Under the pieces are notes generated by a model, which was not told the origin of the DNA, did no database searches, and saw nothing but the letters and a program-made list of their open reading frames with translations. Below are positions 22,401-63,769 of a stretch of 64,000 nt of DNA, piece by piece. The DNA comes from Yuukianura sp. NJ FZ-2021 (lineage: Eukaryota), in assembly GCA_046563655.1 (NCBI GenBank), contig CM102289.1, forward strand, positions 372,001 through 436,000, read 5' to 3'. The position numbers and the translations under genes were made by a program. Every line of letters begins with the position of its first letter. The first letter of the stretch is position 1.

Positions 22401-25400
22401 AACGCTATGAAAGGAACTCCAGTCATCAAAGTTTCAACAATTTCAAAAGACAATCGTAAGTTTCAAAAAATGCTCACATTTCAACTTTTTTAAAAATCAT
22501 TATTCTCCACTCTTTTCAAAAATCAACTAAAATCTGCTTAAAACATAAATAAACGCAAAAAGAAATTGGAAAAAGTAAAAATGTCAGAAAATGGACATTA
22601 AAAAGTTGAAAACAGAAAAAGTTCAACAAAATCTCCTTTAAAACTGTCCAAGATGTCGACATTAAAAAGTTCAAAATTTAGACACGAAGGGTTCCAAATT
22701 GTTGGAGAAAAAAAGCTCAAAACTTTTTGTCGTAATTACTTAAGACCTCATGAGAACTTTTTTAAGTAATTTTTATGATTTGGAATTTTGAACTGTTTCT
22801 AACGAGTGGGAAAATTTGAATTTGAAAAACAGTTTTTGACTTTTGTTTCTCATAGTTTTCCACTTTAAGAACTTGATTTGATGGGAAGTTGATTTTATTG
22901 ACAGTTGATAATTGAGTGAGGGGGTTTTGCGAGGTGGGCGGTTGAATTTCAAATTTCTCATTTCAAAAGAGTTGCATGATGCTTCGTTTTTTTCGAAATT
23001 TTTTTTGAATGATTCTTAACTCGTTTTGATTCTCACATGCACAGGGCCTAATAATACGGTGCTCTACGTCCTGCCTGAGGCCCAATCTGAAAACTACTTT
23101 GGAATTCAACCAATGTCCGGATCTCTGTCAGTCACGTCACAGCTTGACCGTGAGGTCAGGTCAGAGGTCAACCTGACCGTCTATGCTTTTGATGCTGCCA
23201 TGGAAACGATGTTCGACAAAACTTCAGTCACCGTCAAAATTGTCGACACGAATGACAATCGGCCAAAGTTTTTGTGCCCATTGCTGCGTGTGCCTGAAAA
23301 TCAAGAGTTAGGGGTGATTCACACCTTCGCGGCGAGTGATCCTGACGTGGGCCGCGGCGGTGAAGTGACTTTTTCAATTACTAGTGGAAACCATGACAAT
23401 ACTTTTAGCATTGACCTCCACTCGGGTCAACTGAAATGCCGACCGCTGGACAGAGAGCGCAGAAGTTCTTATGTTTTGGTCATCACTGCGCAGGATCAAG
23501 GTCTTCCTGCTCAGAGAGCTTCTTGTAATGTCACGGTCACGGTGACCCCGGATGAAAACGACAACTCACCAGAATTTGTACAAAAAGAATATAAAGCAAC
23601 CGTGAGAGAAGACGCAGCGGTAGGAACGACCGTGTTGAGTGTAGAAGCAACCGACGCAGACTTGGGAAACAACGCAGCTATTTCATATTCTTTGAGTAAC
23701 GTCAGCTCACCACACTTTAGAATCGATGAAAAAACGGGAGCCATCACAGTGGCAGGGTGAGTTGAAACAAAAAATATTACAGACAGAGGGATTCGAACCC
23801 ATGACTCTGCTCATTAAAGTTAGCGTTTTCGCCATTTTGCTAACTAGCTCCTTGGGCTATTTTTTCCTAACGATAAATGAGCAGCGTCATGAGAAAAAAA
23901 TTACACGAAGTGTGATTCGAACCGAAGACTCTGCTCAGAGAGAACTCGGCTTTTTTGGTGCCGTTTTTCCTAGAGTGAGCAAAGAGCAGAGTCCTCGGTT
24001 CGAATCCGATTGGGATCAAAATTTTTATAAGTAGATTTTTCTAAAATTGTTTAATTTTGAATAATTTTTTTAAAAATTTTGTTTAGAAAATTGGATCGTG
24101 AGGCTATTCGAGAGTATTTATTTGACGTTGTGGCTACTGACGGTGGAATTTACGATTCCCGCTCTTCAAAAACCAGAATATTTTTGACCGTGACTGATGT
24201 GAACGACAATCGACCGGAATTTGTGACTCCGTTAGCAACGACTGTTGAGGTCTCAGCAGATGCTAAACCTGGAACAAGAATTGCACAAGTCAGAGCAACT
24301 GACAGAGATAGTGGGGTCAACGGTCATGTGACTTACGCCCTGGAAGGTCACATGACCAAGGTCAAAGTTCATCCAGACTCTGGAGTTGTTTCAATCGCTG
24401 AAAGTCTGGAACGTGACGCTGGAAGTGTCATGACTTTGAAGGTCATCGCAAAAGACCAAGGCGTCCCACCATTGATGACGACAAGCGTAATTCAAATTTT
24501 GGTGGGTCAAGTTCCGGTGGCATCAACTCTAAGATTCACAGAAACAACTTATAAGGGCAGCATTCCTGAAAATTCTGCACCAGGAACAGCAGTAGTTCAG
24601 GTATGGTTTTCAAAAAAGTTGAAAAATTTTGTTTTCAATTGCAGATATTCATAATTTTGGAAATTTTTATTATTTAGGTCACTGCCTTGAGAAATGACGG
24701 CCGACGACAAAGAATGATTTACGAAATTATTGGAGGAAATGAAGATAGCGGTTTTGAAATTGAGAAAAATGAGGGTCAAATTCGCGTCAAAAATTCGTCA
24801 GCACTAGATCGCGAGAAACGTGAAAATTTGACGCTTGTGATTTCAGCGTCCACTGATTCTGCGACTGCGCCGTTAACTGCATTTACTGTCGTCGTGATTT
24901 CATTGGTGGATGAAAATGACTCTAGTCCAGAATTCAACCAAGATCTGTACACTGTTGCCGTTTGGGAAGGAAATAGCAAAGGAGCCTTCGTGATCCAGGT
25001 AAGATTTTCAAAATTTTGATGTTTCTTCAAAATTTTAAAATTTTAAAATTTCCTTGACAGGTTTCAGCTCATGACGCAGATGAGGGACCCAATGCACAAC
25101 TGATGTACTACATCATAGATGGGAATGAAGACAATGCTTTTGTGATCGAACCCCCGCATTCCGGTATCGTCAAAACAAATATCGTTCTGGACCGGGAAAT
25201 TCAAGAAGAGTACCGACTGACGATCGTTGCCACGGACGACGGTACGCCACAATCAAGCGGATCTTGTGTACTCAAGGTCAAGGTCATAGGTATGAACATA
25301 CTTTATACTATATTGAACTATGTTACTATTACAAAAAGAAAAAAAAAAGCTCGAGAGGGATTCGAACCCAAGTCTACCGTTCAGGGGTAATCACTCTCGC

Positions 25401-32306: not shown

Positions 32307-33612
32307 CACAGCCCCCTGGACGTGCTGTCCAATACCTTTGTCTTAAGAAAATATAAAAACATGCAACTTTTGGCAACTTAATGCCAAATCAAACTAAACA
32401 TGCACAATTTAAAAAACTCTCAAAAAGTTTTTACCATAGGCCAAGATTGCTATAGCAACCATTTATACAAATGGCGTAACAGGTTATGTCATAACTACGG
32501 TTTAAGAAATATTGTTTGTTTTGAATTTTTCTGCGATTCGTTGACCTCTCGCCATTTGAATCAAATGTGATTCGTATGAAATTCGTACCAAAGTTGTTTT
32601 TTTTTTAAATCGGAGTTATGACATAACCTGTTACGCCATTTGTATAAATGGTCGCTATAGCAATCTTGCCATAGGCGGTAGAAAACCCGATTCCTTCAGA
32701 TTTTCGTAGCGTTCAAGAAATTGCTCCTTATCTGAAATTGAAATTACATTTTAAGAACTGGACAATTTGTTTCAAAATAAATAATTTTTTTTCATGAAAT
32801 CCAAATGTTTAGAGCTTTCCTTACATTCTTCATTCAAGAATTGAAACTTCAACGGTTCGTTTTCCTCTTCAAAATCCTCACGTCCCTGAAACAGTGTAAA
32901 CGACCCGCGCATCTCAAATGCGTTCACTGAAGTCCGGAAGATACGGCACGGAGACTTGTCCACTGAACTTAAGTTCCCCGAAGCCAATCGTTTCAACTCT
33001 AAGAATACAAAAAATTATGAACATGATTCGGAATTATATTGTTATACTAAATACCAATATTTCACACTATATTTAATATTCCATACTAATATTTCACAAT
33101 AATTACCATCTCCAATTTCCACAACAAAATCAAAGTCACACCCATTTTCCGGAATGGCATTCTTGGTAAGGAGGAGAATTTTTGGTTCATGATACGAGCG
33201 AAAGTCCTCTGGGCGCTCAACCTCTGCCATCTTGTACTGGAAGATTAACTCACGTGACATGTCTCTGAAAAGGAAAACGGATTAGAAGAAATACGTAGCA
33301 TTACACAATACGCACTATTTCAAAAAGTGATTCATGTTCCAAAAAACAACCTCCACGTTACTAAAACATCTTCATATGCTAAACATTTTGAATTTCAAAC
33401 ATGACGTTACACACAGTTTTAAAATTTGAACGTAAGGAATGTTCTAAGTGCTTACCAAATTTTGCCACTCGCCTCCGTTCCTTCCGGCGTCTTTTCACAA
33501 ACCTTATTTTCAAATTTTTCCTAAAATTTAATATCCTCCTCTCCCAATTTTGTAAACTAAAGTGACAGGGAATGACCGTAACTCCTACACTTTTCAAAAG
33601 CGAAAAACACCT
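32307..33612 (-). pseudogene. Unknown multi-exon gene, probably degenerate at its 5' end
   Basis: Spliceable minus-strand exons encoding ...EDFRSYHEPKILLLTKNAIPENGCDFDFVVEIG..., ...KFQFLNEE|YKEQFLERYENLKESGFLPPM. The upstream 33700-34090 region has several stops. No family recognised. Confidence 0.4.
32442..32668. mobile_element. MITE, CAAGATTGCTATAGC family, ~65-bp TIRs, 8-bp TSD
   Basis: Left end CAAGATTGCTATAGCAACCATTTATACAAATGGCGTAACAGGTTATGTCATAACT is mirrored at the right end. Perfect TSD CCATAGGC at 32434-32441 and 32669-32676. Confidence 0.92.
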
Positions 33613-38573: not shown

Positions 38574-41069
38574 TCATAACACAATTTGAAAAAGTAACTC
38601 TGTGGCGTTGGTATTGCTGGATTTGTTGTCTGTTCCAGTCACCAACGTTGTTGTCTCGTCCTGCAAACCTTCAGATTTTAATTCATTTAGCAACGAAGAA
38701 CGCCTAAAAGTAGTCGTTTTTACACATGTAACTTGTCCTGAACCGGTAACGCATAACCGCCGAAATGCATTTTCGGCACGAATCAAAGCAATATAAAATA
38801 ATGTTCGCATTTCGTAAATGAATATTAAACTACACAAACCCAAACAGAGCAGAATCAAGTAAAAACTTGTTACAATGTTTCCTGTTAACTTCAATTTTCT
38901 CGGTTTTAGTTGCATCACCTTTGTTTTTTCGTGTTCATTCATAATGTTGTCTAATACATAAGGTCTAGTGATGGGGAACCATTTTTCCCACAACCCATAA
39001 ATTCCAGATTGCATGAGTTGTTGTAACCTTGTGTATTGATGCTGCTCAACTATGTCGTACCCACGAACAATTGTACCAAGCGGTTCCGTCCCTTTGCGGA
39101 AGTTTACGGTATTGTCTCCAGTAGAGTCTAAGTCTGTACTTTCTACTCTATTTTCATGGAAGGCTAAAAATAAATTCAAATCTGACTCTGCTCCCAGTAG
39201 GGCTGTCTTGGAACAGAGCGACAGAATTTCCGAAAGCCTTAAAAGTGTAGTGTTGGGGTTTAGAAAAGATTTAAAGTTGGACAATACGCTAATTTCTGCA
39301 ATGATAAATTGTGAAGGGAATTTAGCCCTTACTTTCAAGGTGTCTAAGATGCTGTTGTCCGTACTTTTTCCTTTCTGTTTGACATAGGTGTAGTGATCAA
39401 AGCAATTCACATTTAGAGCCTCACTATTGTTTACTAACTGTACTGGATCATCCAGACATTTGAAATTGGTTGATTTGGTGAAATCTACTATTCGCTTGAG
39501 TGCAGCATTTCCGGAAATTCCAACTTGGCATGAACTAAAGTTAGTCCTATAAGGCTCATCATGTACCCCTTCACATCTACACAAAAAAATGGGCTTCAGT
39601 TCGCGTATGCGAACTGAAGCTGAAAATTTCAACAGTTCGTAGTTGAATGTGAACAAACTTTTTCCGTCAGTTAGTACAACAAAGTCCTCCAACTGATTGA
39701 ACCTGTGGTATGTTTGTGTAATGGCCATTGGCTTAGTTAAAAACGACACAACTACGCCTTTATATGCATTAGTAAGAACTACAGTTAGCAACATCCACAA
39801 ATTAATGACAGGGAGAATGCCATTTTGTGCAATATTTTGTCGTGTTTTAGAAAATACTTCCAGGATACTTCCAAAAAACAGAAATAAAACATCTAAGCAA
39901 ACTAAATTTCGCAAGTGAGAAGATGTAGAAGGTTGAACCCGAACTAACAAAGTAACAAAACAAATTAACAAAAGTCCCGTGATTAATGCAGCACCCCAAG
40001 AGTAAGTATCATAAGGTCTTGTATAAATTTTAAAAGTGAGTGTTTCCTGCGTTCCATCACAAGTTAAGAAAGTTAGTTGTTCTTCTTTAGTTGGGAAAAA
40101 GTGTAAAATAGATCTGTTTGGATTCGGGGCGACTAAAGACAGAGGATAACACAGTCTTCTCCAACTTAAAATAGATTCTAACTCTGTCACCGACAGAGAA
40201 ATTCCCCGTTTAAAATGTAACAAAAACTCAATGTGGTCGTGCAAATCAAAGCCCACAAGGCCATGCGCCTTGAACGGGTTCAAAATTTGAGTCAGAGGAA
40301 GCTTTCCCAGATCTTTCTCTGGAAAGAAAATGTGATTCCTTGCGTCTGCTTCAACTGCTGTGGCCACTTCTCGAAAGCGGTTGAAAGACAACGCTTGTGT
40401 TGTGTTCATCTCATACCATTTCAATGCGAATTGACGAAAATCATATATTTCATCATCGTCTCCAGGGTACAGTTCTCTTTTGATGTAGTGCAGCCATATT
40501 CTTGAAATCAAGTATTCGTGGTCATTTGGTGTGAATTGAGAATGTGATGAAGATGAGAGTCCGTAGTAGAATATGGATGCATACGGGAGTTGTTCGAGTA
40601 GTAGTCCTGTAGCACCAGAGCTATAAGCGCTGCTGGGCTCAACAATATGAATTGAAACACCAAGGGTTCTCATGAAATCGCGTTTTGTGTAAAGTACTCT
40701 AAAAGTTGACCGTAGTTCGCTAGTGTAATCCGCAGGATAAATGCTTTTTGGAAATAGGAGGAAAATTTGAAAGAAGTTGAGTTTGTTAGCAGAAATGTGC
40801 ATGTGTTTAATAACATTCAACTCCTCAAAGGGAGGTTCGCAAGTTTCATTTGTGTTGCACATGAAGTACAATGTTATGGGAACGGCAAAACTTGCAGTCA
40901 TTTGGAACTGTTGGTTTTCAGCAATTATCAAATTGTCACTGTGTAGAAACTGGTCTACCAGTTGATACAAATTCACAATGTTATAAGTATTGCTTAATGT
41001 TTCTGAATTTGCTGACACTCGTAAAATTGGGATTAGATTCAAAAAGAGTGATAACCACAAGGAGTACAT
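38574..41069 (-). CDS. Intronless divergent ionotropic receptor (IR / variant iGluR)-like protein, copy A
   Basis: ~830-aa ORF with a signal peptide. Pre-M1 IYTRPYDTYSW, M3-like LWMLLTVVLTNAYKGVVVSFLTKP, S2-end LMQSGIYGLWEKW and M4 NIVTSFYLILLCLGLCSLIFIYE. Start could instead be the ATG at 41081. Confidence 0.75.
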   Translation of the reverse strand: MYSLWLSLFLNLIPILRVSANSETLSNTYNIVNLYQLVDQFLHSDNLIIAENQQFQMTASFAVPITLYFMCNTNETCEPPFEELNVIKHMHISANKLNFFQIFLLFPKSIYPADYTSELRSTFRVLYTKRDFMRTLGVSIHIVEPSSAYSSGATGLLLEQLPYASIFYYGLSSSSHSQFTPNDHEYLISRIWLHYIKRELYPGDDDEIYDFRQFALKWYEMNTTQALSFNRFREVATAVEADARNHIFFPEKDLGKLPLTQILNPFKAHGLVGFDLHDHIEFLLHFKRGISLSVTELESILSWRRLCYPLSLVAPNPNRSILHFFPTKEEQLTFLTCDGTQETLTFKIYTRPYDTYSWGAALITGLLLICFVTLLVRVQPSTSSHLRNLVCLDVLFLFFGSILEVFSKTRQNIAQNGILPVINLWMLLTVVLTNAYKGVVVSFLTKPMAITQTYHRFNQLEDFVVLTDGKSLFTFNYELLKFSASVRIRELKPIFLCRCEGVHDEPYRTNFSSCQVGISGNAALKRIVDFTKSTNFKCLDDPVQLVNNSEALNVNCFDHYTYVKQKGKSTDNSILDTLKVRAKFPSQFIIAEISVLSNFKSFLNPNTTLLRLSEILSLCSKTALLGAESDLNLFLAFHENRVESTDLDSTGDNTVNFRKGTEPLGTIVRGYDIVEQHQYTRLQQLMQSGIYGLWEKWFPITRPYVLDNIMNEHEKTKVMQLKPRKLKLTGNIVTSFYLILLCLGLCSLIFIYEMRTLFYIALIRAENAFRRLCVTGSGQVTCVKTTTFRRSSLLNELKSEGLQDETTTLVTGTDNKSSNTNATELLFQIVL

Positions 41070-41889
41070 GGCTCTGACCATAGCAGTTTGAATTGTAAAC
41101 CAAATCAAGGAAACTTACTTTAAAGCAATGTTTAACTTAGTTTCTGTGTATGCTGCGAAGAAATTTACAAGTAAAAGTATAAGGCGGTCCAGCTTACACA
41201 CGATAAGTGCGGCGTCAAAGGAAAAGTTCCGAACTTTTACTAAGAATTAGTAATTTGGGTAATGCATTCGTATTGGATGAGATGAAAACAATTTTGTAAA
41301 CAATCCCTCTCCACGCCCTCATAAACAATACTGTTAAAAGTCCGTCCTGCACGAATTGTCAACTTGATAAATTTACCGTTAAAAAATTCACTGACCTTGA
41401 CCAAAGAAAGTCCAAAATGCCGCTCATGCTACCTTGTTTTGTAAAGTATCAATTTCTAACTTTAAGTTTCAAATCCAAGGCACTTGACTTTTAGTAATCG
41501 AAGAAGTTCTAAAAAGTACGTTGTTGCTTTGATTTCACAATGAAATTTACCCGATTTTTATATATCCTTCTTAGTTCCTAACTTCAAGAATGCAATTTAG
41601 TCGCCGTATTAATTTATATCAAGGCTTAGCTCAGTTTTCATCTTGTTCGTAAGACCCGAATCATAAAAGGGCAGAATTGCAAATTATCAGAAAATGATTT
41701 CGTATTTAATCAAAAGCAATGTACATTAATATTACAGTTTAGAGATATTATTTTTTAGAAAAGAAGTTACACCTAAGCACTCCTGCGCCCACACAACCAT
41801 TGTGAAGTTCTGCGCTCTGCTTTTCACTGACAATTGGACAGACAGACAACCTAATTGCATTAAATGGCCTTCACTACTACAAAAAGATG

Positions 41890-42260: not shown

Positions 42261-42329
42261 TTTTTAAATCGGAGTTATGGCATAACCTCTTACGCCATTT
42301 TAGTACAAATGGCCGCTATAGCAACGTTG
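42261..42329. mobile_element. Solitary right TIR of the CAAG..CTATAGCAAC MITE family
   Basis: TTTTTAAATCGGAGTTATGGCATAACCTCTTACGCCATTTTAGTACAAATGGCCGCTATAGCAACGTTG closely matches the right end of 32442-32668. Confidence 0.85.
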
Positions 42330-42953: not shown

Positions 42954-45663
42954 TCAGGATTCAATCGTCTCTAGCTTAGACGCTCTTCTTGTTTTCGGTT
43001 TCTTTGCAAACCTTTCCAGAAGATTTTGCAACAAACTAGTAAAACTACACAAAACAAATTTGAAAAAGAATACTAGAGGTTGAAGAAGTAATAACGCAAA
43101 TTCAAAAACAGATAATATGCAATGAAAAAGTGATAAAACAAGTTGAAAATGTGATAAGACGATTTGAAAGAGTGAATTCTTGGCGTTGGTAGTGCTGAGT
43201 TTGTTGTGTGCTCCAGTCAACATGCATATTTTCTCGCTTTGTAGCAAACCTTTGGGTTTTGTATTCACTTGCGACGAAAAAAACTTAAAAGTATTTGTTT
43301 TTACAAGTTTGATATTTCCTGAACTGGTAACGCGTATCCGACGGTATACACTTTCGGCACGAATAATAGAAATATAAATTATTGCTCTTACCTCGTAAAG
43401 TCCTACTAAACTACACAAGCCCAAGCATAGCAGAATCAAATAAAAGCTTGTTATAATGTTCCCTGTCAAATTTAACTTTTTGGGTTTTCGTTTGTATGTC
43501 TTTGTTTTTTGGTGTTGATTCATAATTTTGTCTAATGTGTTAGGTCTAGTGATGGGGAACCATTTCTCCCACAAACCATAAATTCCAGATTCCATGAGTT
43601 GTTGTAATCCTCTATATTTTTGCTGCTCAACTAGTTCGTAGCCTCGAACAGTTACATCAACTGGTTCTGTTCCTTTACGAAAGTAAACTGCGTTTTCCCC
43701 ATCAGAGTCTAAGCCTGCACGTTGTTGTACTCTATTTTCATAGTAGGCTAAAAATAAATTCAAGTCTGACTCTTTTCCCAGTAGGGCTATTTTGTAACAT
43801 AGCGACAGAATTTCCGAAAGCCTCAAAAGTGTAACGTTGGGGTGTAGGAAAGTGTAATGTGGGGTGTGCAGTATGTTTATGTTTGCAAGAATAAATGCGG
43901 ATGGGAATTTAGCATTCACTTTCGAGTTCTCTAAAACGCTCATGTCGGTACTTTGTTCTATCCGTTTAATAAACCTATATTTATTATGGCAACTCACATC
44001 ACTATACTGGAAGTCGTAGTACTTAAAATTTCGGGTGTATCGAGGCATTTGAAATTAGTTGATTGAGTGAAACCCACTACGCGCTTGAGGGCAGCATTTC
44101 CAGAAAGTCCAACTGGGCAAGAGTTAAGCTGCATCTGATCATACAAAGGGAACGTGAACGGAAATTCGCATTGGCAGTAAAAAATGAGCTTGAGCTCGCT
44201 TATGCGAATAGGGTCGGAGATATTCAACGAACCGCTTTTGTGTGGCAACGGAGTCTTTCCATCGCTTATTACGACAAAGTCCTCCAACTGGCTAAACTTG
44301 TTGTATGTTTGTGTAATGGGTAGTGGTTTAGTTAGATACGACACAACTACTCCCTTGTAACCATTAGTAAGGACTACAGTTAACAACATCCACAAACTAA
44401 TTACAGGCAGTATGCAATTTCGGCCAATATTTTGCTGTGTTTTAGAGAAAACTTCCACCATACTTGCGAAAAACACAAATAAAAAATCTAAGCAAACTAA
44501 ATTTCGCTGGGGAGAAGATGTATGTGGTTGAACGCGAACTACCAAAGTAACAAAACATGTTAGCAAAGCTCCTATTGCTAATATTGTACCCCAACAGTAG
44601 GCATCATAAGGTCTTGTATAAATTTCAAAACTCATTGTTTCCCCAGTTCCATCGCATGTTAAGAAAATTATTTTTTCCTTTTTAATTGGAAAGAATTGCA
44701 AAATCATTCTGTGTGGGTTATGGGCAACCAATGATAGAACAAAAGTGTAGTTCCGATTAGATATTTCACTATGAAACTTTTTCGGCGTCACAACAATTTC
44801 CTGCTTAAAATGTAAAACTAAGTCAATGTGGGCATGAACATCAAAGTTCGGTGGAACAAGTCCATGCGCCTTGAAAGGGTTTAGAATTTTAGCCACACGA
44901 ATTTTCTCCTCAGTTACTTTTTTTCTTTTTTTTTGAAGTCAAATTTTGATTTGGTTTTTTTCATAGTCAAAATGTTGTTTCTTGCGTTGGCTTCAACTGT
45001 TGTGACCTCTTCTCGAAAGCGATTGAAAGACAGCGCTTGCGTTATGTTCATCTCATACCACTTACACCTGATACTAAGGTGTTCAACCCGGAAATAACTT
45101 TCAAATCGAAATTTGTTGTAGGACAAGAATATTTTTGAAATTTTGTATTCGTAGTAATTTCCTACAAATTGAGAATGTGATGATAGCTCATAGTGAAATT
45201 TGGATGCATAAAAGAATTGCAGCGGTAGTTTGCAAGACATATCAGAGTTGATAGGCCCTACTATATGAATTGAAACACCTAGCGTTCTCATGTAATCGTA
45301 TTTAATTGACAACGATATAGACTCGCCCCAATCAATGCGTTCTGGAAATACAACGTAAATTTGAAAGTAGTTGAGTTTGTTACCAGAAATGTGCATGAGT
45401 TTAAAAACGCGGAGGTACTCAAAGTATTCGCACGTTCCATTGTTGTTGCACATGTAGTACAATTTTATGGGGACGGCAAAACTGGCACTAATTTGGTACG
45501 TCTGGTCTTCAGCGATGATCAAATTGTCACTGTGTGGAAACTGATCTACCAATTGATGCAAATTTACAATGTCGTACGTATCGCTAAATGTTTCTGAATT
45601 TGCTGACACTTGTAAAATGGAAATTAAATTCAATAAGAGTAGTGACCACAAGCAGGAGTACAT
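42954..45663 (-). pseudogene. Divergent IR-like paralog, copy B, with two frameshifts
   Basis: Colinear with copy A across three ORFs (44914-45663, 43994-44896, 42954-44048). One shift lies in an A9-G-A7 run near 44918-44934, the other in non-homopolymer sequence near 44000. Confidence 0.75.
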
Positions 45664-46483
45664 GGTTCTGACCGGAGTTGTTTAAATTGCTGGACCGAAT
45701 GAAGAAACCTTGGCTCTAAACCAAGGTTTAGCTTAGCTACTGTGTTTAGGGTGAACAATATTTCGTTATTGTTGGCTATATGTAGCACATTTAAAGTACA
45801 AGGCGATTCAGAGTCGACACGAAAAGAAATGAGGAAGGGAAAAACCGACCAACTCTTTTACTAGAAATTAATTTGCTTAAAGCATTCGTGTTGAATGATA
45901 TAAAAGCAATTTTTTAAACACTTCTTCATCACGCCCTCACAAACTTTACTACACGAAATGTCAACGCGTTATTAATTCACAATTTTAAAAGTCAAAAATG
46001 TTCACCCCAGTTGATGCTACCGTTTTTGCATAGTTTGGATTTCTAACTAGTTTTAAGTTTTAAATGCATGGCATCTTCGCCTTTAGTAGAAACATTCAAA
46101 AAAGTATGATTTTGCTTTTACTTGATGTCGACCCGATTTTACAAATTCCTGTTAAGTACTAACTTCAAGAGTTCAATTTAGTCGCAGTATCACTTTATTT
46201 AAGTCTTCCTTTTCATCTTGTTCTTAAAACTCGAATCATAAAAGAGCGGAATTGAAAATGTCTGTCTGTCCGCTTGCCACTGGCAACCGAGCAGACAGAC
46301 AACCTGAATGCATTAAGTGGCTTCCGCCACTTTGTAAACAAACGGTAATAGGACGTACAAAAGTAGCGAAAGATGAAGTTACTTTGCGACCGATAACCAA
46401 ATTCTTTGGCATGATTGTGACAGACAGATATACAAACAGTGTAGTTTGCGTTAAGTAGCTTTTGTTACCACACAAAGAGGCAA

Positions 46484-53152: not shown

Positions 53153-55848
53153 ATGGAGGGAGTAACTATTGTTTATTTTCTTTTGGTTCTGCTCAATGTT
53201 GTTCCACTTTTGGCTCAAGATGCAAGTGAAAATGAGGCTCTCATAATTCCAAAATCCTACAGCAATTTAAAACTTCCTACAAGAAAAAGAGGACATAAAG
53301 GTGAAATTACTTCAATTTCCAAAAAAAAAATCAAATTTCTAATTTTATACTTTGTGAAAAAAAGTTTTTGAAGAGGAAGAAGGGGGAGGTGGTGGAGGAC
53401 CATCCAGCGATGAAGAGGAGTATTTTGCCCCACCACAAGGGCCACGTCTTATGGCTCCGGCCCCACCACAAGGACCCCCACTTATGGCACCGGCCCCACC
53501 CCGAGTGTTTATGTCTCCAGCAGCGGCCCCACCAGATCAAGATGCAAATTCAACTTTGGCCCCACCAGATGAAGATCCGAATTCAACTTTGGCCCCACCA
53601 GATGAAGATCCGAACTTAACTTTGGCCCCACCAACACTGCAACCATATTCAGGCGTTATTGTGAAATTAGAAAGTGAAACGGAAAGCATCAAGAAATTTG
53701 CTTTTAGTGGTGATGAAGGTGAAGAAGATGGAGAGGAAGAGGAGAAAGTCAATGTTGATGTGGCAATACAAATTCAAAGTATACGAGAAGTTGACGAAGA
53801 AGATCAGGTTTGTCCATAGTGTGAACAAAAATTTTTTTGAAAAGCTATTTTTTTTTTAAATTTTGAATTTCAAATTTTAGAAAATTACGGTTGAGATGGA
53901 CTTGACGGTGCATTGGCACGACTACGACTTTCTTCCGGAACAGCAAAACTACTGGCCTGAAAAATTTGAAAATATTTCTAGTCTGTTTCGAACATTCGGC
54001 GGAGTTCCTCTTCCGCTTGAAGATTTTGATAAGTTATGGAAACCAGATATCTTCATTGGTAATGCCATTGTAACAAGTTTTAACACAGTTTTAACCTTGT
54101 TTTAACTCAGTTTCAACATAGTTTTAACTTTAGTTTGTTTATTTTCCTAAGAACGAGTCGTGAAAGTCACGAAACCTGGACTTTTATCGAGCCCAGTTAC
54201 AGTACGAGCCATCAAACAAACTTCCAGCATAGTATATACTACGAGGTCAGAACAAACAATTTTTGTTTATAAAAAAAACTTATTTTTTTGAAATTTTTAT
54301 TTTCAAAATTTCAGAGCTTCAGTGAAAACGGATTGTAGCATGGACTTCCAGTATTACCCAGCGGACACTCAGCACTGCATTATTGACATCCGCAGTTGTA
54401 AGTTTTTTTTTCAGAGTAGATTTTGTTTGTTTTTATAAAAAGTGACCAATTTTCATTTTTTTTGAAAGATCAAAATGACGAAACTAAAATGAACTTGCGA
54501 TGGAATCCATCGCCTGGGGCGTACTTAGTTGAAACTGACTCTGACGATAACTTTGACGCCAAGTTAAGCGGTAGCACGCCATTGTATCAATTGAATTGTA
54601 TCAACTGCCATTGCATCAACTGAATTGTGTCAATTTGAATTGTATCAACTGGCCAATTGTATCAACGACTAATTGTATCAACGAGTGTAATGCTTAATTT
54701 AGCTTAGGTTAGGTTAGGTTACGTTGATTGATACAAGTAGCCGTTGATACAATTGAGCGTTGATACAATTCGAATTGACACAATTCAGTTGATGCAATGG
54801 CAGTTGATACAATTCAATTGACACAATGGCATGGAACCAGTTAAGCTATGTTGCTCAGAGAAGAAAAAAACTCAAAAACATCAACCTTGATGGTATGAAA
54901 AAACATTTTTTCAAAATTTTCAAAAAAATTGGACAGTTTTTATTTTTATACTGCAGATGCTATCTTTGACGTGCTTCAAATCCAGCTTTCAATGCGTCGG
55001 CGGATGACGTATCACATTTTACAGGTACGAAATTTTTTAAATTTCCTAAAAGTTTAAAAGTTTTGAATTTAAATTTTAAAATTTTGAATTTTTCAGACTT
55101 ACATTCCTTCTGCATTTCTGGTTTTCATCACGTGGTTGAGTTTTCTCATTCCAGAGGACCTCATTGAAGCCAGAATAGGTGAGCATGCTTAACAAATTTC
55201 AAAATTTGAACAAAATTTTTGAAAAACGAGGTTAAAAATTTTGATTTCTGTACTCAAAAGGAATATCCATGACGACACTGTTGACACTGACAGCAATGTT
55301 TTCCGCTGTCAGAGAAAGTACGCCAGTTGTCAGCTATATCAAGTACGTCCAGCATTTTTATGTATAAGACTGAATGTTTTCAAAATTCAAAATTTTGAAA
55401 CCTCTTTTTTTAACTTTTTAGAGCCATTGACATTTGGATGGTTTACTGCATTTTCATCGTGTTTGCAACTTTACTGGAATTTGCCTTCTTCGTGTGGCTT
55501 CGTAACTACAAAATTGCCCAGCGGCAAAGGAAACTTGAAAATTTAATTTGCGAAGTGGAGTTAAATGGAAGTGGAAAAAATGGCGGGAAAAATTCGTTTA
55601 GCGAACCAATCGGAAGAGCTCGTCATTCGTTCGACGAGTTTTCCACAAAAGCTGTTCAAACTTTTGAACGAACCGCCAAACTCATCAACCAGTTCACATT
55701 TGGTTTCTTCGTGTCGAATTTTGTGATTTTTAACATCGTCTATTGGACATGGCTCTCTCTGTCATCCGGTCACAGTCAATGGGTTGTCAACGCAACGCTC
55801 AATGGACAACCCAATGACACAAACGGCGGATTTGTAGACGAACTTTAA
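53153..55848 (+). CDS. Divergent Cys-loop ligand-gated ion channel subunit, paralog 1 (exon interrupted by a MITE)
   Basis: Signal peptide, LWKPDIFI, Cys-loop CSMDFQYYPADTQHC, M1 YHILQTYIPSAFLVFITWLSFLI, M2 EARIGISMTTLLTLTAMF, M3 SYIKAIDIWMVYCIFIVFATLLEFA and M4 FVIFNIVYW. Insertion at 54570-54838. Confidence 0.85.
54570..54838. mobile_element. Foldback MITE with ~110-bp internally repetitive TIRs, central TTAGG repeats and an 8-bp TSD, inserted in a coding exon
   Basis: TSD AGTTAAGC at 54562-54569 and 54839-54846. Arms are built of AATTGTATCAAC-like units. Paralog 2 has the uninterrupted AAGTTAAGCTATGTTGCTCA. Confidence 0.92.
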
Positions 55849-56854: not shown

Positions 56855-59800
56855 ATGAAGGGAGTAACTATTCTTTATTTGAGTTTGGTTCTGTTCAATG
56901 CTGTTCCGCTTTTGGCTCAATTTGGAGGACTTTTCTTCCCTAGAGAGAGAGATAGAGGTGCTGACGACCTGTTTATTCCAGATTCTTACAGCAGTCTCAG
57001 AATTCCTGGGAAAAAAAGAGCCAACAAAAGTAAAGTCGTTAACATTTTTTAAAAATTTCGAACTTTTTGAAGTCTGGAACCTACTTTTTTGTTTTTCTAA
57101 ATGTTTGAACTTAAATTGTTTGAAGGTGCCTCACATATTCCCACACGTTCATTCAATCCATTCGGATTCGGAGGGCCTTTTCCGGTGCAGAACGAAGCGG
57201 AATCTCCAGCCGGATCGGTGTTTTCACGGGCGGGTGCGGTAGAAACAATCGACATCAATGAGCCACTTCCACCACTGGAGGGACAGGCCCCACCTCTGGA
57301 CCCGCCGAACCAATATAACGCCACATATTTGTACTCTAATTCAAAGTCTACCACGCCCGCCCCACCGGGAGGGCAGGGTTTCATGGCTCCGCCTCCGGTA
57401 TCACCTCAAGTGGAGACAAATTTTGAATCAGATTCAAATTCTAACACGCCCGCCCCACCGGGAGGGCAGGGTTTCGTGGCTCCCGCTCCGGTATCACCGA
57501 AAGTGGAGCTAAAGTACGACTCCATTTCAAATTCCACTTCATCCGACCCACCGGGAGGGTCGTCCTTCGTGGCTCCTGCTCCGGTATCGCCGAATCAATA
57601 TGAAGTGACATATTTGGACTCAGTTTCAGATTTTAGCCCGCCGCCTGCACCGCGGTGGTCACCAGGGCAGGGCGGGTTGTTTGGGCCAAACGTTGCATCT
57701 TTGTGGCCCGGTAATTCTGACGAACGTGGACAAAATGAAGAGCAAGAGGATGAGGATATTGTTGTGGACGTGGCACTACAAATCCAAAGCATCAACGATA
57801 TTGACGAAGAAGATCAGGTTTGGGGCTAAGAAGAAAGAAAAAATTCTTGCTAAACAAAATTTGAACTTTTTTTTTAACTTGTTTTTTTTTCTAAGACAAT
57901 AACAATTGAAATGGACTTGACGGTGCGCTGGAATGACTACATAGTTCTTCCGGAAAAGACAAACGACTTGGCAGGGAAATTGGAAAATATTTCCGCCAAA
58001 TTAGGCACATTCGATGGAGTTCCACTTCCTCTTTCAACGCTTGAACGCTTATGGAAACCAGACATCTTCATTGGTAACTCAATTTTACCATTGTTTCAAC
58101 CTGATTTTGACTTATTTTAACACAGTTTTCATCTAAATTCAATTATTTTCCAACAGTTTAAAATGTTTTAAGCAAGGTTCTTTCACAACAAATTCTATTT
58201 TCTACAACAGGTCTGCATGCATTTATGCATCTCCTATTTACATTATATGCAAAAAATTACCATAGAGAGGCAGATTTCTTGTAAACAAATTTTAAAACTT
58301 CCAGTTATTGGACAACCTGGTGTAGAAAAGGTTTTATTTTTTGTTGACGAACCTTGGTTTTAACCTAATTCTAACATTTTTAACCCTTTGAACTTGGGTT
58401 TGTCCGATTTCTTAAGAACGAGCTGCAAAAATCACCAAACATGAACTTTTATCAAGCCCAGTTACAGTGAGATTCATCAAGCAAACGTCCAGCATTGTTT
58501 ACAATACAAGGTCAGGAACAGAAAATTTGTATTTTGAAAAAAAAAGAGTTAAAATTCTTAAAAATTTTCGCTTTTCAATTTTTCAGAGCTACAGTGAAAA
58601 CGAATTGTAACATGGACTTCCAGCATTACCCGGCGGATATTCAGAATTGCATTATTGACATTCGCAGTTGTAAGTTTCACATTTGATAAAAAACTTTTTG
58701 TGTGTTTTTGAAAAACGTGATTTTTTTTCTGAAAGATCAATACGACGAAAACAAAATGCATCTGCGGTGGCATCCAACGCCCGGGGCGTACCTGGTTGAC
58801 ACGGACTCTGATGACAACTATGACCTAAAGTTAAGCTATGTTGCTCAACGCAAAAAAGTGGTCAAGGACACCAACCTCAATGGTAAAAAAAAGTGTTTTC
58901 AAAATTTGGAACAAATTATAACAAATTTTACTTAACTCAGCTCAATAATAACTATAGTTACCTAATTTTTTTTATTGAAGATGCAACCTTTGACGTACTC
59001 CAAATCCAGCTATCGATGCGTCGGCGCATGACTTATCACATTTTACAGGTACGAAATTCAGCAAAACCGTATTTTTTTTTTGCTTTTTAAAATTTAACCT
59101 AAACCTAATTTAAATTTCTTAAAATTTTAAATTTCGCAGACCTACCTTCCTTCTGCCTTTTTGGTTTTCATCACGTGGTTGAGTTTTTCCCATTCCAGAA
59201 GAACTCATTGAAGCCAGAATAGGTATGAGCAAATTTTTTGAAAAAGAGTTCAAAATCAAATTTTGGAAAAATCTCAATCCTGAGTTTCAAAATTTTGACT
59301 TTTACAACATTTCCCAGGAATATCCATGACGACTCTGTTGACACTGACTGCAATGTTTTCCGCTGTCAGAGAAAATACTCCGGTTGTGAGTTATATCAAG
59401 TAGGCCCACTTTCATTCAATGTTTTTTAAAATTCAACAACTTTAAAAAAGATCTCATTTTGAAAATTTTAAATTTTGGTGAAATATTTTCCAGAGCCATT
59501 GACATTTGGATGGCGTACTGCATTTTGGTTGTGTTTGGAACTCTACTGGAATTTGCCTTCTTCGTGTGGCTCCGTAACTACAAAATTGCCAAACGACAAA
59601 AGAAACTGGAAAATTTTATTTGCGAAGTGCCGATGAAGGGGAATGGCAAAAGTAGCGGCAGAAATTCTGCCAGCGAGCCAATCGGAAGAGCTCGTCAGTC
59701 AATGGACGCATTTTCCACAAAAGCTGCTCAAACTTTTGAACAAACCGCTAAACTTTTCAACCAATTCGCATTTGGATTCTTTGTTTTGACTTTTGTTGTC

Positions 59801-59935
59801 TTCAACACTGTGTACTGGACATGGCTCATGCTGTCATCCGGACATGATACGTGGCATGTCGATGACAGGCTCAACGGACATCCAAATGAAACTACCGGTG
59901 GATTTCTGGACAAACTGTCCAACTCAACTCTTTAA
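56855..59935 (+). CDS. Divergent Cys-loop channel subunit, paralog 2 (+1 frameshift in the M1 exon; possible pseudogene or assembly error)
   Basis: Same exon architecture as paralog 1, Cys-loop CNMDFQHYPADIQNC. Has AGTTTTTCCCATTCCA where the paralogs have AGTTTTCTCATTCCA, giving TGA at 59209-59211. Confidence 0.8.
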
Positions 59936-60953
59936 GTCACCAAACATAACTTAGACGAAAACGAAAATGTTAACCTAATCGTAAGCGTTTACCACACAAG
60001 TTTTTATTTACAATGTAATACAGAATTGACAAAAAAAATTGTGCTCTGACATGTCTAATTTTTTTTTTTTGTTTTGCAAAGCCTGTTCGGAGTTGCCAAC
60101 TTTTTTTAAATTTAAGTATTTTTTTAAACTTAGAAAAGTAACTTAACTAAATTTCTCTCCAAACTAATTAATTTAACTAATTCAGAAACTAATTGATTAA
60201 CTAATTTTAAGTTAACTTTTGAAATTAATGTCGACATAGAAGACATAGACTTAAAGTTAAAGTGTTTACAAAATATGTATTTTTAGCATACAAAACAACG
60301 TTAGCGAAAAATAAAATTTTACTGTGACACGCTTAGATTTATTTCTAATTTAACCAACTGTGCCTTTTATTTTATTCCAACATTTTTTGCAACTTGTTTT
60401 TTAATCATTTAAATATTTGAAAATCTTTTAGTTTGGAAACTGCAATAAAATTTTAAATAAAATTTAAACCGTTTCAAGTGTAATCGTGTAATCACCATTT
60501 TTGATTTCTGAAAAAATATGCTCCGGTCGCTTCGCTTTTGATTGACTTATGTAGAAAGTTGTCCAAAATTGCAAAAAAAAATGCATGATTTTTTTTTCCA
60601 AGAGGTTTCAATTCCTTGATTGGAACAAATTTATTAAATTTAAAATTGCAAGGAAATAAATTGCAATTGCAAAGGTTAGCTTCACTTTTCTTGGAAAAAA
60701 GAACAAGTTTTGTTGTTTTGAATGTCGTCCTAATCTGAACTCTGCCAGTTTACAACACTCTCACTCACTGTAGAAGAGGGAAACGTGCGTTGACTTCAAG
60801 AAATCATATTTTCAAACGCAAAGACAATTTTTTAAATTTTAAATTTCCCAGTGTTACTTCTGAAATTGTTAGTAAAAAAAAATTAAAGTTCAATTTTTTA
60901 AAAAGTTTTTCTAGACAATAGTAAGAAAGTGATTGTTTGATTGAATTTGAGAA

Positions 60954-63769
60954 ATGGCGGGAGTAACTACTCTCTGTTTCCTTTTGGCCGTTGCCCTTCC
61001 TGTTATGGCTGCTTATGTAGATGATGATGACCTTGTGATTCCCAAGAGTTACAGCAATTTGAGAATTCCTGGAACGAAAAGAGCCAACCAGAGGCAGGGT
61101 AAGAGACATTTTTTAAAAAATGTTAATAAATGCAAAAATTTGAAAAAAATTAAAGTTTTGAACCACAATTTTCCGAAGGCGGAGGAGTTGGAGTATTGCT
61201 GACCGGCACCAGACCGCGGAATCCTTCTTCATTTGATAAGGAGAGTGTTGCGCCACCACCACGACAACTTCCGGAGCAAGACTCTGGCCAAGGTTACTAT
61301 AGCAACGAAATAGTTTTCCTTTAACAGGTTTGGCAATAAGGCGTGTTTACAAAAAATCCAGGCCCCGAACAATTTTTTCCGCCAATCCCATTTGAGTACA
61401 TATAAATCATTGCCCTAGGAAGGCATGGTGAAGCAAGTTTTACTAATTTTTTAACAAAATTTAAAAAGTTGTTGTTATTGCCTAACCTATTGAAGAAAAA
61501 ACTATTTTTTTATGAACCTCGACTTTGCCTTAGATTTAAATTCTACTGCACCCCCACTGTTGCCAGCAGAGCGGGATGGAGTTGAAAATGAGCAAGTTGA
61601 AGATGGAGTTGAAAATGAGCAAGTTGAAGATGGAGTTGAAAATGAGCAAGTTGAAGACGATGGAGTTGAAAATGAACAAGTTCAAGACGGAGATATAGTT
61701 TACGAGGACGAAAGTCCAGTCGTAGAGGAAACGAAGCCGGAAAAGATTGTTGTCGACATCGCAATACAAATCCAAAGTATCACGGACATTGACGAAGAAG
61801 ATCAGGTTTTAAGATTACAAAATCAAAAACGGAACTTCAAATTTACTAAAAAGTTAAAAAATTTATGTTGACTTTTGTTTTAAGAAAATAACGATTGAGG
61901 TAGACTTGACAGTTCACTGGAAGGAAAGACTACGACGTTCTTCCGAAACAGCGAAGCTACGTCCCTGAGGAACCCGAAAATATTTCTGCACTGTTGGACA
62001 AATTCGGTGGAAAGCCATTCAAGCTTAAGACGTTTGATGAGCTGTGGAAACCAGACATCTTCATTGGTAACCCAGTTTCAACACTATTTTAACATGTTTT
62101 AACCACACCTTAGTCTGTTGTAACCATATTTTAACTTATTTTGAGCATATTGTAACTTGTTTTACACATATTTTAACTTGTTGTAACCATATTGTAACTT
62201 GCTCTCAACCATATTTTGAAGTATTTTGACCATATTTTAACTTGTTTTAAGCAAGTTTTCACTTGTTTTGAGCATATTTGAACTTGTTTAACCATATTTT
62301 AACTTGTTTTAACCATATTTTAAGTTGTAAAAAGCATATTTTAACTTGGTTTTTATTTTAAGAACGAGTTGTGAAAATTCAAAGACCTGAAATTCTATCA
62401 AGCGCTGTTTCAGTGAGATACATTAAGCAAACGTCCAGTGTTATTTACACTTCAAGGTGACCAAATTTCGGGAAAAAACGTTTTAATTTTAGTTTTAACG
62501 TTTTAATTTTGAAATTTTTCAGAGCCTCGGTGAAAACAGAGTGTGGCATGGACTTTCAGTACTACCCAGCGGATACTCAGCATTGCACTATTGATATACG
62601 CAGTTGTAAGGTTTATTTTGGTGTTTTTGAAAATAGTAGCAAATTTTGAAATTTTTTGAAAGATCAAAATGACGAAACAAAAATGAACTTGCGGTGGAAT
62701 CCATCGCCTGGAGCATACCTGGTGGACACGGAGTCTGATGACAACTTTGACCTCATGCTAAGCTATGTGAAGCATAAGAGGAAGAAGGTCAAGGACATCA
62801 GTTACAATGGTGAATTTTTGTTTTTCAAAATTTTGAAAAAAAATTTTGACTCTCAGTTTTTAATTTTATACTCCAGATGCCGTCTTTGATGTGCTTCAAA
62901 TCCAACTGTCAATGCGTCGGCGCCTAACATATCACATTTTACAGGTACAAAAGTTTTGTATCTTGCAAAAAATTATGAAATTTTTAAATTTTCATTTTTT
63001 TTAATTTGAATTTTGCAGACTTACGTTCCTTCCACATTTTTGGTTTTCATCACGTGGTTGAGTTTTCTCATTCCAGAGGAACTCATTGAAGCAAGAATAG
63101 GTTAATTTTTTGAAAACACACAAAATTTGCCTAAAATCTCAACACTGCGTTTAAAAATTTCGACTTTTACAAAATTTCCCAGGAATATCTATGACGACTC
63201 TGTTAACATTGACTGCAATGTTTTCCGCTGTAAGAGAAAATACTCCTGTCGTCAGTTATGTCAAGTACGTCCAGCATTTTTATGTTTGAACAAAATTTTT
63301 TCAAAATCCAAAATTTTGAAAAAATTTTCATTTTTTCAGAGCTATTGACATCTGGATGGCATACTGCATTTTCGTAGTGTTCGGAACGCTACTGGAATTC
63401 GCCTTCTTCGTGTGGCTCCGCAACTACAAAATTGAAAAGCGGCAAAAGAAACTGGAAAATTTGGTTTGCGAAGTGCCGATGCAGGGGAGTGGCAAAAGTG
63501 GCGGCAGAAATTCGTTCAGCGAACCAATCGGAAGAGCTCGTCAGTCAATCAGCGAATTTTCCACAAAAGCTGCTGAAACTTTTGAACGAACCGCCAAACT
63601 CATCAACCAATTTGCATTTGGATTTTTTGTTGTCAATTTCATCATTTTCAACACCATTTATTGGACATGGCTTTTCGTGTTGTCGCAGCACAGTCAATGG
63701 GTTGTCAACCCAACGCTCAACGGACAACCCGAAGGTACCGACGACGATGGGTTTTTGCCCGAACTGTAA
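60954..63769 (+). CDS. Divergent Cys-loop channel subunit, paralog 3 (4-bp duplication frameshift; extra MITE-derived intron)
   Basis: Signal peptide MAGVTTLCFLLAVALPVMA, Cys-loop CGMDFQYYPADTQHC, M1-M2 IPEELIEARIGISMTTLLTL. GGAA duplicated at 61919-61926, giving TGA at 61966-61968. Confidence 0.8.
61289..61521. mobile_element. Aged MITE of the CAAG..CTATAGCAAC family forming an intron (61293-61533)
   Basis: Left TIR CAAGGTTACTATAGCAAC. Subterminal inverted match AAATAGTTTTCCTTTAACAGGTTTGGCAATAA / TTATTGCCTAACCTATTGAAGAAAAAACTATTT. Degenerate TSD ACTCTGGC / ACTTTGCC. Confidence 0.75.
61576..61692 (+). repeat. Coding tandem repeat (DGVENEQVE)x~4
   Basis: GATGGAGTTGAAAATGAGCAAGTTGAA repeated in frame. 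Confidence 0.9.
62085..62350. repeat. Intronic minisatellite, ~20-bp unit
   Basis: Unit close to AACCATATTTTAACTTGTTT. Shorter related tracts sit in the homologous introns of paralogs 1 and 2. Confidence 0.85.

Follow-up and report, generated by a model that had tools for sequence, protein, structure and literature searches.

Three tandem channel genes and the interruption of the third

The stretch analyzed here (the window) comprised 64,000 nucleotides (nt) from Yuukianura sp. NJ FZ-2021 (GenBank assembly GCA_046563655.1, contig CM102289.1, positions 372,001 to 436,000 of the forward strand). Self-comparison and alignment revealed three tandem paralogs of a Cys-loop ligand-gated ion channel gene in the window: paralog 1 (approximately 53153-55848), paralog 2 (approximately 56855-59935), and paralog 3 (60954-63769). 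A coding exon of paralog 3 carried an inserted hAT-like DNA transposon of the miniature inverted-repeat transposable element (MITE) type, designated E3. On balance, E3 is probably removed from the mRNA as a new intron. The features of the locus are collected in Table 1.

The Cys-loop exon matched the Pfam domain Neur_chan_LBD with 30.4 bits (E = 3.3e-07), above the cutoff of 26, and the last exon alone scored below the Pfam threshold for Neur_chan_memb (17.2 against a cutoff of 28.1). A C-x13-C loop was seen in the translation of paralog 3. By these matches the gene is assigned to the Cys-loop ligand-gated ion channels, which are defined by a ligand-binding domain with C-x13-C and a membrane domain of four helices. 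No match at E <= 0.001 was returned when proteins were searched with exon 3, the last exon, and a neighboring receptor gene. The ratio of non-synonymous to synonymous substitution rates (dN/dS) between pairs of paralogs was 0.17-0.30, and the corresponding ratio of proportions (pN/pS) on the paralog 3 branch was approximately 0.21.

The variable N-terminal region was a single continuous exon in paralogs 1 and 2 and was interrupted at 61293-61533 in paralog 3. The coding motif flanking the interruption (EQD...NST.APP) recurred in the uninterrupted exon of paralog 1, as did the D-x-NST-x-APP motif of paralog 3 exon 3. Reading through 61293-61533 gave immediate stops, and its 241 nt were not divisible by three. 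From the recurrence of the motif, the continuity of the other paralogs, and the read-through stops, the interruption of paralog 3 therefore sits in former coding sequence.

Repeats were found elsewhere in these genes. Exon 3 of paralog 3 contained about four tandem copies of the acidic nonapeptide GVENEQVED (61575-61690), and paralogs 1 and 2 had different, proline-rich repeats at this place. Within intron 4 of paralog 3, positions 62078-62352 were a tandem repeat with a unit of about 42 nt and copies about 77% alike, which brings this intron to 296 nt. In paralog 2, five Ts were present at 59184-59188, inside the exon of the first transmembrane segment (TM1), where paralogs 1 and 3 had four. 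The resulting 1-nt frameshift may reflect either a genuine lesion or a mistake in assembling the homopolymer; omitting one T gave paralog 2 a full open frame.

Table 1. Features of paralog 3 and of the transposable elements, in positions of the 64,000-nt window.
Feature	Position	Strand	Remarks
Paralog 3 exon 1	60954-61098	+	Start codon; signal-peptide-like N-terminus
Paralog 3 exon 2	61179-61292	+	114 nt, phase 1 at both ends; upstream half of the once-continuous variable exon
Left duplication copy	61281-61288		8 bp; ACTCTGGC in the window, ACTCTGCC in X1, X2, and X4 contigs (61287 G>C)
E3	61289-61521	+	233 bp; non-autonomous hAT-like DNA transposon (MITE) inserted in a paralog 3 coding exon
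Candidate new intron	61293-61533	+	241 nt; candidate donor CAAG|GTTACT in the element terminal repeat, candidate acceptor ...GCCTTAG|A in host sequence
Left subterminal inverted arm	61308-61339		Inverted-repeat pairs
Right subterminal inverted arm	61475-61507		Holds CTAAC about 46 nt 5' of the candidate acceptor, then a T-rich run
Right duplication copy	61522-61529		Window allele ACTTTGCC; X4 haplotype ACTCTGCT (61525 T>C, 61529 C>T)
Paralog 3 exon 3	61534-61805	+	Downstream half of the once-continuous variable exon
Four extra bases in exon 4	61920-61923	+	GGAA doubled; frameshift of the window allele relative to paralogs 1 and 2
E1	32442-32668		227-bp MITE, sister subfamily; perfect duplication CCATAGGC; 73-nt arms, 92%
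E2	42261-42329		69 bp; right half of an E1-subfamily element; 88-90% alike to E1
E4	54570-54838	+	Palindromic 269-bp MITE unrelated to E3; splits a ligand-binding-domain exon of paralog 1
E5	58173-58356	+	184 bp, E3 subfamily; ends CAAGGTT...GAACCTTG; duplication GTTTTAAG/GTTTTAAC, 7/8

The inserted element and its family

DNA contigs from four public runs (X1 to X4) were placed on positions 60500-62070 (1,571 nt). X1, X2, and X4 represented one sample and X3 had a different organism label; X3 gave no cover at the four extra bases of exon 4 or across either junction of the insertion. In total, 617 (X1), 463 (X2), 164 (X3), and 301 (X4) contigs were placed, nearly all on 61289-61508. In X1, the flanks had a summed depth of approximately 177, compared with 57,850 at 61295-61347 and 51,342 at 61454-61506. 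Depth on the element was about 300 times that of the flank, summed contig depth not being the same as copy number. By contig counts and depth in X1 to X4, the E3 family had many similar copies in one genome.

The left edge of E3 lay exactly at 61288/61289 in every run, where contigs ceased to match. Contigs ending there numbered 28+33 (X1), 27+24 (X2), 19+20 (X3), and 16+25 (X4). The flanks beyond this edge were dissimilar (agreement 0.39-0.43 across runs and 0.42 in X1), and contigs of most other E3-family copies had AT-rich flanks that were mutually unlike. On the right side, 44 X1 contigs continued past 61508 with a common continuation ending ...GAACCTTG; the right end of the family is thus an inverted CAAGGTT. 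The right end of E3 itself (61509-61521) differed from this consensus by two changes and a 4-nt loss, and X4 had a T at 61520 that restored the consensus end CCTTG.

An 18-nt terminal motif (CAAGRTTRCTATAGCAAC) had five matches in the window with at most three mismatches, compared with 0.12 expected, and five or more matches were obtained in none of 100 shuffles. The matches were at 32442, 32446 (a palindromic overlap), 32651, 42312, and 61289. A metagenome scan with the same motif found 51 loci, seven of which matched an element over 19-20 nt only, which is the chance level for an 18-mer. Two pairs of subterminal inverted arms were present in E3: 61314-61339 with 61475-61500 (26 nt, 85%) and 61308-61317 with 61498-61507 (10 nt, 100%). 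None of the 54 open frames of at least 110 amino acids in the window was noticed by eye to be transposase-like, and no autonomous partner was seen there.

The 8-bp target-site duplication matched at six of eight positions in the window allele and at seven of eight in each other haplotype. By parsimony, the ancestral duplication would have been a perfect ACTCTGCC on both sides (8/8). Duplications of 8 bp also flanked E5 (7/8) and E1 (8/8). A YARNG terminus was found at both ends, as CAAGG on the left and as reversed CAAGG at the right end of the family (CGAGG in E3). In the available text of PMC3014272, an 8-bp duplication and terminal YARNG are named as typical of hAT elements, and the duplication and CAAGG ends seen here fit an element of this type. 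Decay is evident in both the duplication and the right end of E3, and this insertion is therefore not a very recent one.

Because a repeat edge, an 8-bp duplication, a terminal inverted repeat, and high copy number coincided at a place that was continuous in both other paralogs, we conclude firmly that a MITE inserted into continuous coding sequence of paralog 3. A preliminary description of this DNA had already reported an insert in paralog 3. Its coordinates and letters were correct, as were the continuity of paralogs 1 and 2 at the same place, the terminal motif shared by the left end with the MITE at 32442, the inverted subterminal arms, and the left edge, at which contigs ended in all four runs. 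The same description had called the 8-bp duplication degenerate, which held for the window allele; the other haplotypes carried a better copy, and the ancestral one was probably perfect.

The count of family members given at that time (three, at 32442, 42261, and 61289) had to be revised. These elements belonged to two subfamilies: E1 and E2 were 88-90% alike, and E3 resembled them only at the termini, in a subterminal TAACAGGTT motif, and at approximately 63% over approximately 110 nt. The count had also missed E5, a real relative of E3. Located in paralog 2, within the old intron 3 that all three paralogs share, E5 explained much of the difference in the length of this intron between paralog 2 (343 nt) and paralog 1 (93 nt). 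Altogether, one of the two E3-subfamily copies in the window coincided with a candidate intron (E3) and the other lay within an old intron (E5); E1 and E2 were not at exon edges. The intron-generating family proposed in the preliminary description is thus a putative one. As judged from the flanks of most other copies, the E3 family agrees more with a generalist MITE than with one specialized in introns.

The candidate intron and alternative fates of the insertion

In all, the insertion lengthened the sequence by 241 nt (233 + 8), the same number that the candidate intron would take out. Excising 61293-61533 left an open frame reading ...DSGQ|DLNST..., compared with ...DSGLDLNST... when the element and one duplication copy were excised. 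The candidate acceptor TTAG was in host sequence, 4 nt past the right duplication copy. Candidate splicing would retain CAAG of the element and drop TTAG of the host, altering one residue from Leu to Gln. This arithmetic agreed with the earlier proposal of a donor inside the element end, a host acceptor, and an in-frame change from DSGLDLN to DSGQDLN. The donor GT is a feature of the E3 family, found at both ends on their own strands, and not a private mutation, because the other end of the family is the inverted CAAGGTT.

The following course of events would account for the locus. A hAT-like MITE of a high-copy family would have entered the continuous N-terminal exon of paralog 3, giving rise to an 8-bp duplication (ancestrally ACTCTGCC). 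Each end of such an element reads CAAG|GTT on its own strand, so that a 5' splice site fit for use would lie four bases into the left end. The right arm would contribute CTAAC, a putative branch point, and a T-rich run, and the host AG that comes first after the duplication (TTAG, formerly part of the codons for Leu-Asp) would become the 3' splice site. The spliceosome would then excise 241 nt, the same length as was added, with Leu to Gln as the only residue change. The splicing and the choice of acceptor are what we infer from this arrangement.

Splice sites were scored with matrices trained on 27 introns at conserved positions of the three paralog models. The donor CAAG|GTTACT scored 5.8, in the middle of the local leave-one-out range of 2.7-9.9 for the 27 introns, and exceeded 93.6% of 531 GT decoys. 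The left junction was bridged by contigs in X1 (60924-61326), X2 (61106-61326), and X4 (61135-61326), and the right junction by an X4 contig. No joint of an empty site was found among the 15 joints listed for contigs at the insertion (there were four further joints). The E3 insertion was present in every haplotype seen, one of which was approximately 3% divergent.

An alternative, possible but rather unlikely in our estimate, is that the MITE broke the gene. Paralog 3 would then be a null allele or a young pseudogene, the GT..AG would be coincidental, and the intron would be one that a reader or gene predictor draws merely for the sake of an open frame. Several observations support this alternative or weigh against splicing. 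Besides the read-through stops, the acceptor at 61533 scored -3.9, lower than 26 of the 27 local acceptors, and exceeded just 51.6% of 585 AG decoys; by the local standard this is a weak acceptor. Of the 27 local introns, 25 were shorter than the candidate (57-98 nt), and the other two measured 296 and 343 nt. In a predicted fold, the intron RNA formed a long hairpin pairing both ends (z = -2.4; 6 of 200 shuffles folded equally well), which would pair the 5' splice site with the right end. In-frame solutions are not rare by chance: we estimate that any in-frame AG near the end of the element would occur approximately 1 time in 3, and an exact length-neutral GT..AG solution approximately 1 time in 16. 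The window allele contained a second lesion, the 4-nt frameshift in exon 4, and this allele at least may be dead. Finally, each of the three paralogs carried at least one lesion in the assembly, and the whole channel cluster could be decaying in this genome.

Other observations stand against a broken gene. The four extra bases in exon 4 were missing from all covering contigs (177.8 of 177.8 in X1, 134.4 of 134.4 in X2, and 22.3 of 22.3 in X4). With these 4 nt and the 241 nt removed, paralog 3 was a complete open frame of 564 codons. Among the differences listed between X4 and the window, 22 were exonic among 709 sites in exons 1-4. These included 10 synonymous codon changes, 11 non-synonymous changes, and no stops (P = 0.02 against an expectation of 25% synonymous). 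The synonymous lean belongs to the differences listed, with 72 further differences beyond them, and is to that extent a weaker argument for a maintained gene. Haplotypes this different shared the insertion, and the decay of its duplication and right end places it in a past that is not very recent. Taken together with the long-term constraint on the paralogs (the dN/dS and pN/pS values above), these observations favor a paralog 3 that has remained functional while carrying the element. A functional gene of this kind requires removal of the element from the mRNA.

Removal could also use other sites, although we consider this improbable. Exon 2 could be skipped by joining exon 1 to the new acceptor, or the donor at 61293 could be paired with an acceptor farther downstream, at 61569 or 61566. 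Exon 1 ends and exon 3 begins in phase 1, and exon 2 skipping would be in frame. The acceptor at 61569 scored 4.3, compared with -3.9 at 61533, and both 61566 and 61569 were in frame with the 61293 donor, their use costing 11 and 12 codons, respectively. The N-terminal region in question is variable and repeat-rich and had no Pfam match. The 61533 acceptor, in contrast, gives the length-neutral solution, which is the usual pattern of introners in the available text of PMC9860276.

The remaining explanation, an old intron into which the MITE landed, is the usual fate of MITEs and that of E5 in paralog 2, but here it was rejected as highly implausible: the donor lies within the element, no intron is present in paralogs 1 and 2 where the coding motif spans the site, and the element and duplication fill all 241 nt and leave no viable intron without E3, since only 8 of the 241 nt are non-element (4 nt of duplication overhang by arithmetic, plus TTAG).

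Other elements in the window and comparison with known systems

A second insertion was found in the channel cluster. E4 was flanked by a perfect 8-bp duplication (AGTTAAGC at 54562-54569 and 54839-54846), had arms of 86 nt (92%), and split an exon that was continuous in paralogs 2 and 3. Two in-frame GT..AG options were found for E4: 54563-54845 and 54563-54860. In the first, GT and AG lay within the two duplication copies, and excision removed 6 nt of the original sequence and gave an open frame of 581 codons. The candidate acceptors were poor (scores of -11.3 and 0.9). Because the duplication is perfect, the sequence suggests that the E4 insertion is recent, and it may be a null allele.

A broader reading takes E3 and E4 together. 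This arthropod may host a hAT-like MITE family, active and generalist, whose members are pre-adapted for making introns whichever way they are oriented, a reading that we regard as doubtful. Each end would bring CAAG|GTT on its own strand and each arm a branch-point-like CTAAC or TAAC with a T-run, and any exon that was hit would require no more than a host AG close by. Two independent conversions of exon to intron would then be recorded in the channel cluster, by E3 in paralog 3 and by the unrelated E4 in paralog 1, where the duplication AGTTAAGC could supply both GT and AG. If true, this would be a live animal example of ongoing intron birth driven by transposons.

Three further features lay outside the channel cluster. 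An intron of a large cadherin gene contained tRNA-like inverted segments (23770-24026) with T-arm motifs of the GGTTCGAATC type and a pair of 23 nt (96%). No tRNA gene was called by ARAGORN in these segments, which are possibly a tRNA-derived short interspersed nuclear element (SINE) or a MITE. Of two receptor-like genes on the minus strand, the second (42954-45681) occurred in three overlapping open frames, which could reflect short introns or frameshifts; its neighbor at 38574-41114 was a single frame of 846 amino acids. For a neighboring UDP-glycosyltransferase, the nearest protein-atlas clusters were commonest in Arthropoda, which makes an arthropod source of the window probable.

To our knowledge, few births of spliceosomal introns in animals have been cleanly resolved. 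The E3 locus lets the donor and the duplication be read directly, along with the sequence before insertion and two paralogs that lack the intron. If E3 is spliced, this would be a textbook single-locus intron gain by a hAT-type MITE, and it raises the question of an ordinary MITE family, not a specialized introner, seeding introns in an arthropod. An unspliced E3 would be an ordinary insertion that disrupts a gene.

Splicing of a hAT element from transcripts has precedent in maize Ds, which is removed via donors in the element ends with host or cryptic acceptors. These cases are laboratory alleles in which splicing is imprecise and leaky. Like hAT MITEs and Ds, E3 has an 8-bp duplication, CAAGG ends, long inverted arms, short length, and no coding capacity. 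Unlike Ds, E3 would be a fixed, length-neutral intron.

The closest comparison is with introners. According to the available parts of Gozashti et al. (2022; PMC9860276), some introner families supply the 5' splice site and recruit the 3' site, and splicing usually leaves mRNA length unchanged. That source reports introners in copepods, and its supplement includes families of approximately 275-330 nt in marine genomes labeled as copepod; in the supplement rows listed, introners are marked absent for Daphnia, insects, and arachnids. Excerpts of a review (PMC11282704) tie both introners and the non-canonical introns of tunicates to MITEs. Introners as described in these two sources share several traits with E3: they are short non-autonomous DNA transposons with a duplication, inverted ends, and many copies. 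They also resemble the E3 candidate in taking one splice site from the element and the other from the host, with mRNA length constant. The absence of an intron at the same position in relatives was likewise found for E3, in paralogs 1 and 2 (paralogs only). Unlike introners, E3 was the sole copy seen as a candidate intron, most other copies having AT-rich, dissimilar flanks, and its 3' site lay 4 nt beyond the duplication and not within it.

A second comparison is with two kinds of introns covered in the same review excerpts (PMC11282704), the non-canonical ones that derive from MITEs in the tunicate Fritillaria borealis and the nonconventional ones of euglenids. These resemble E3 in their MITE origin, in duplication-like repeats at their edges, and in ends joined by base pairing. 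They have non-canonical ends and require an adapted spliceosome or another mechanism (PMC11282704), whereas the E3 candidate has canonical GT..AG ends. The preliminary description had presented the mechanism, in which an element carries one splice site and co-opts the other, as established, and the available text of PMC9860276 bears this out. By analogy with the introners of copepods, E3 would be a further candidate case of this known mechanism.

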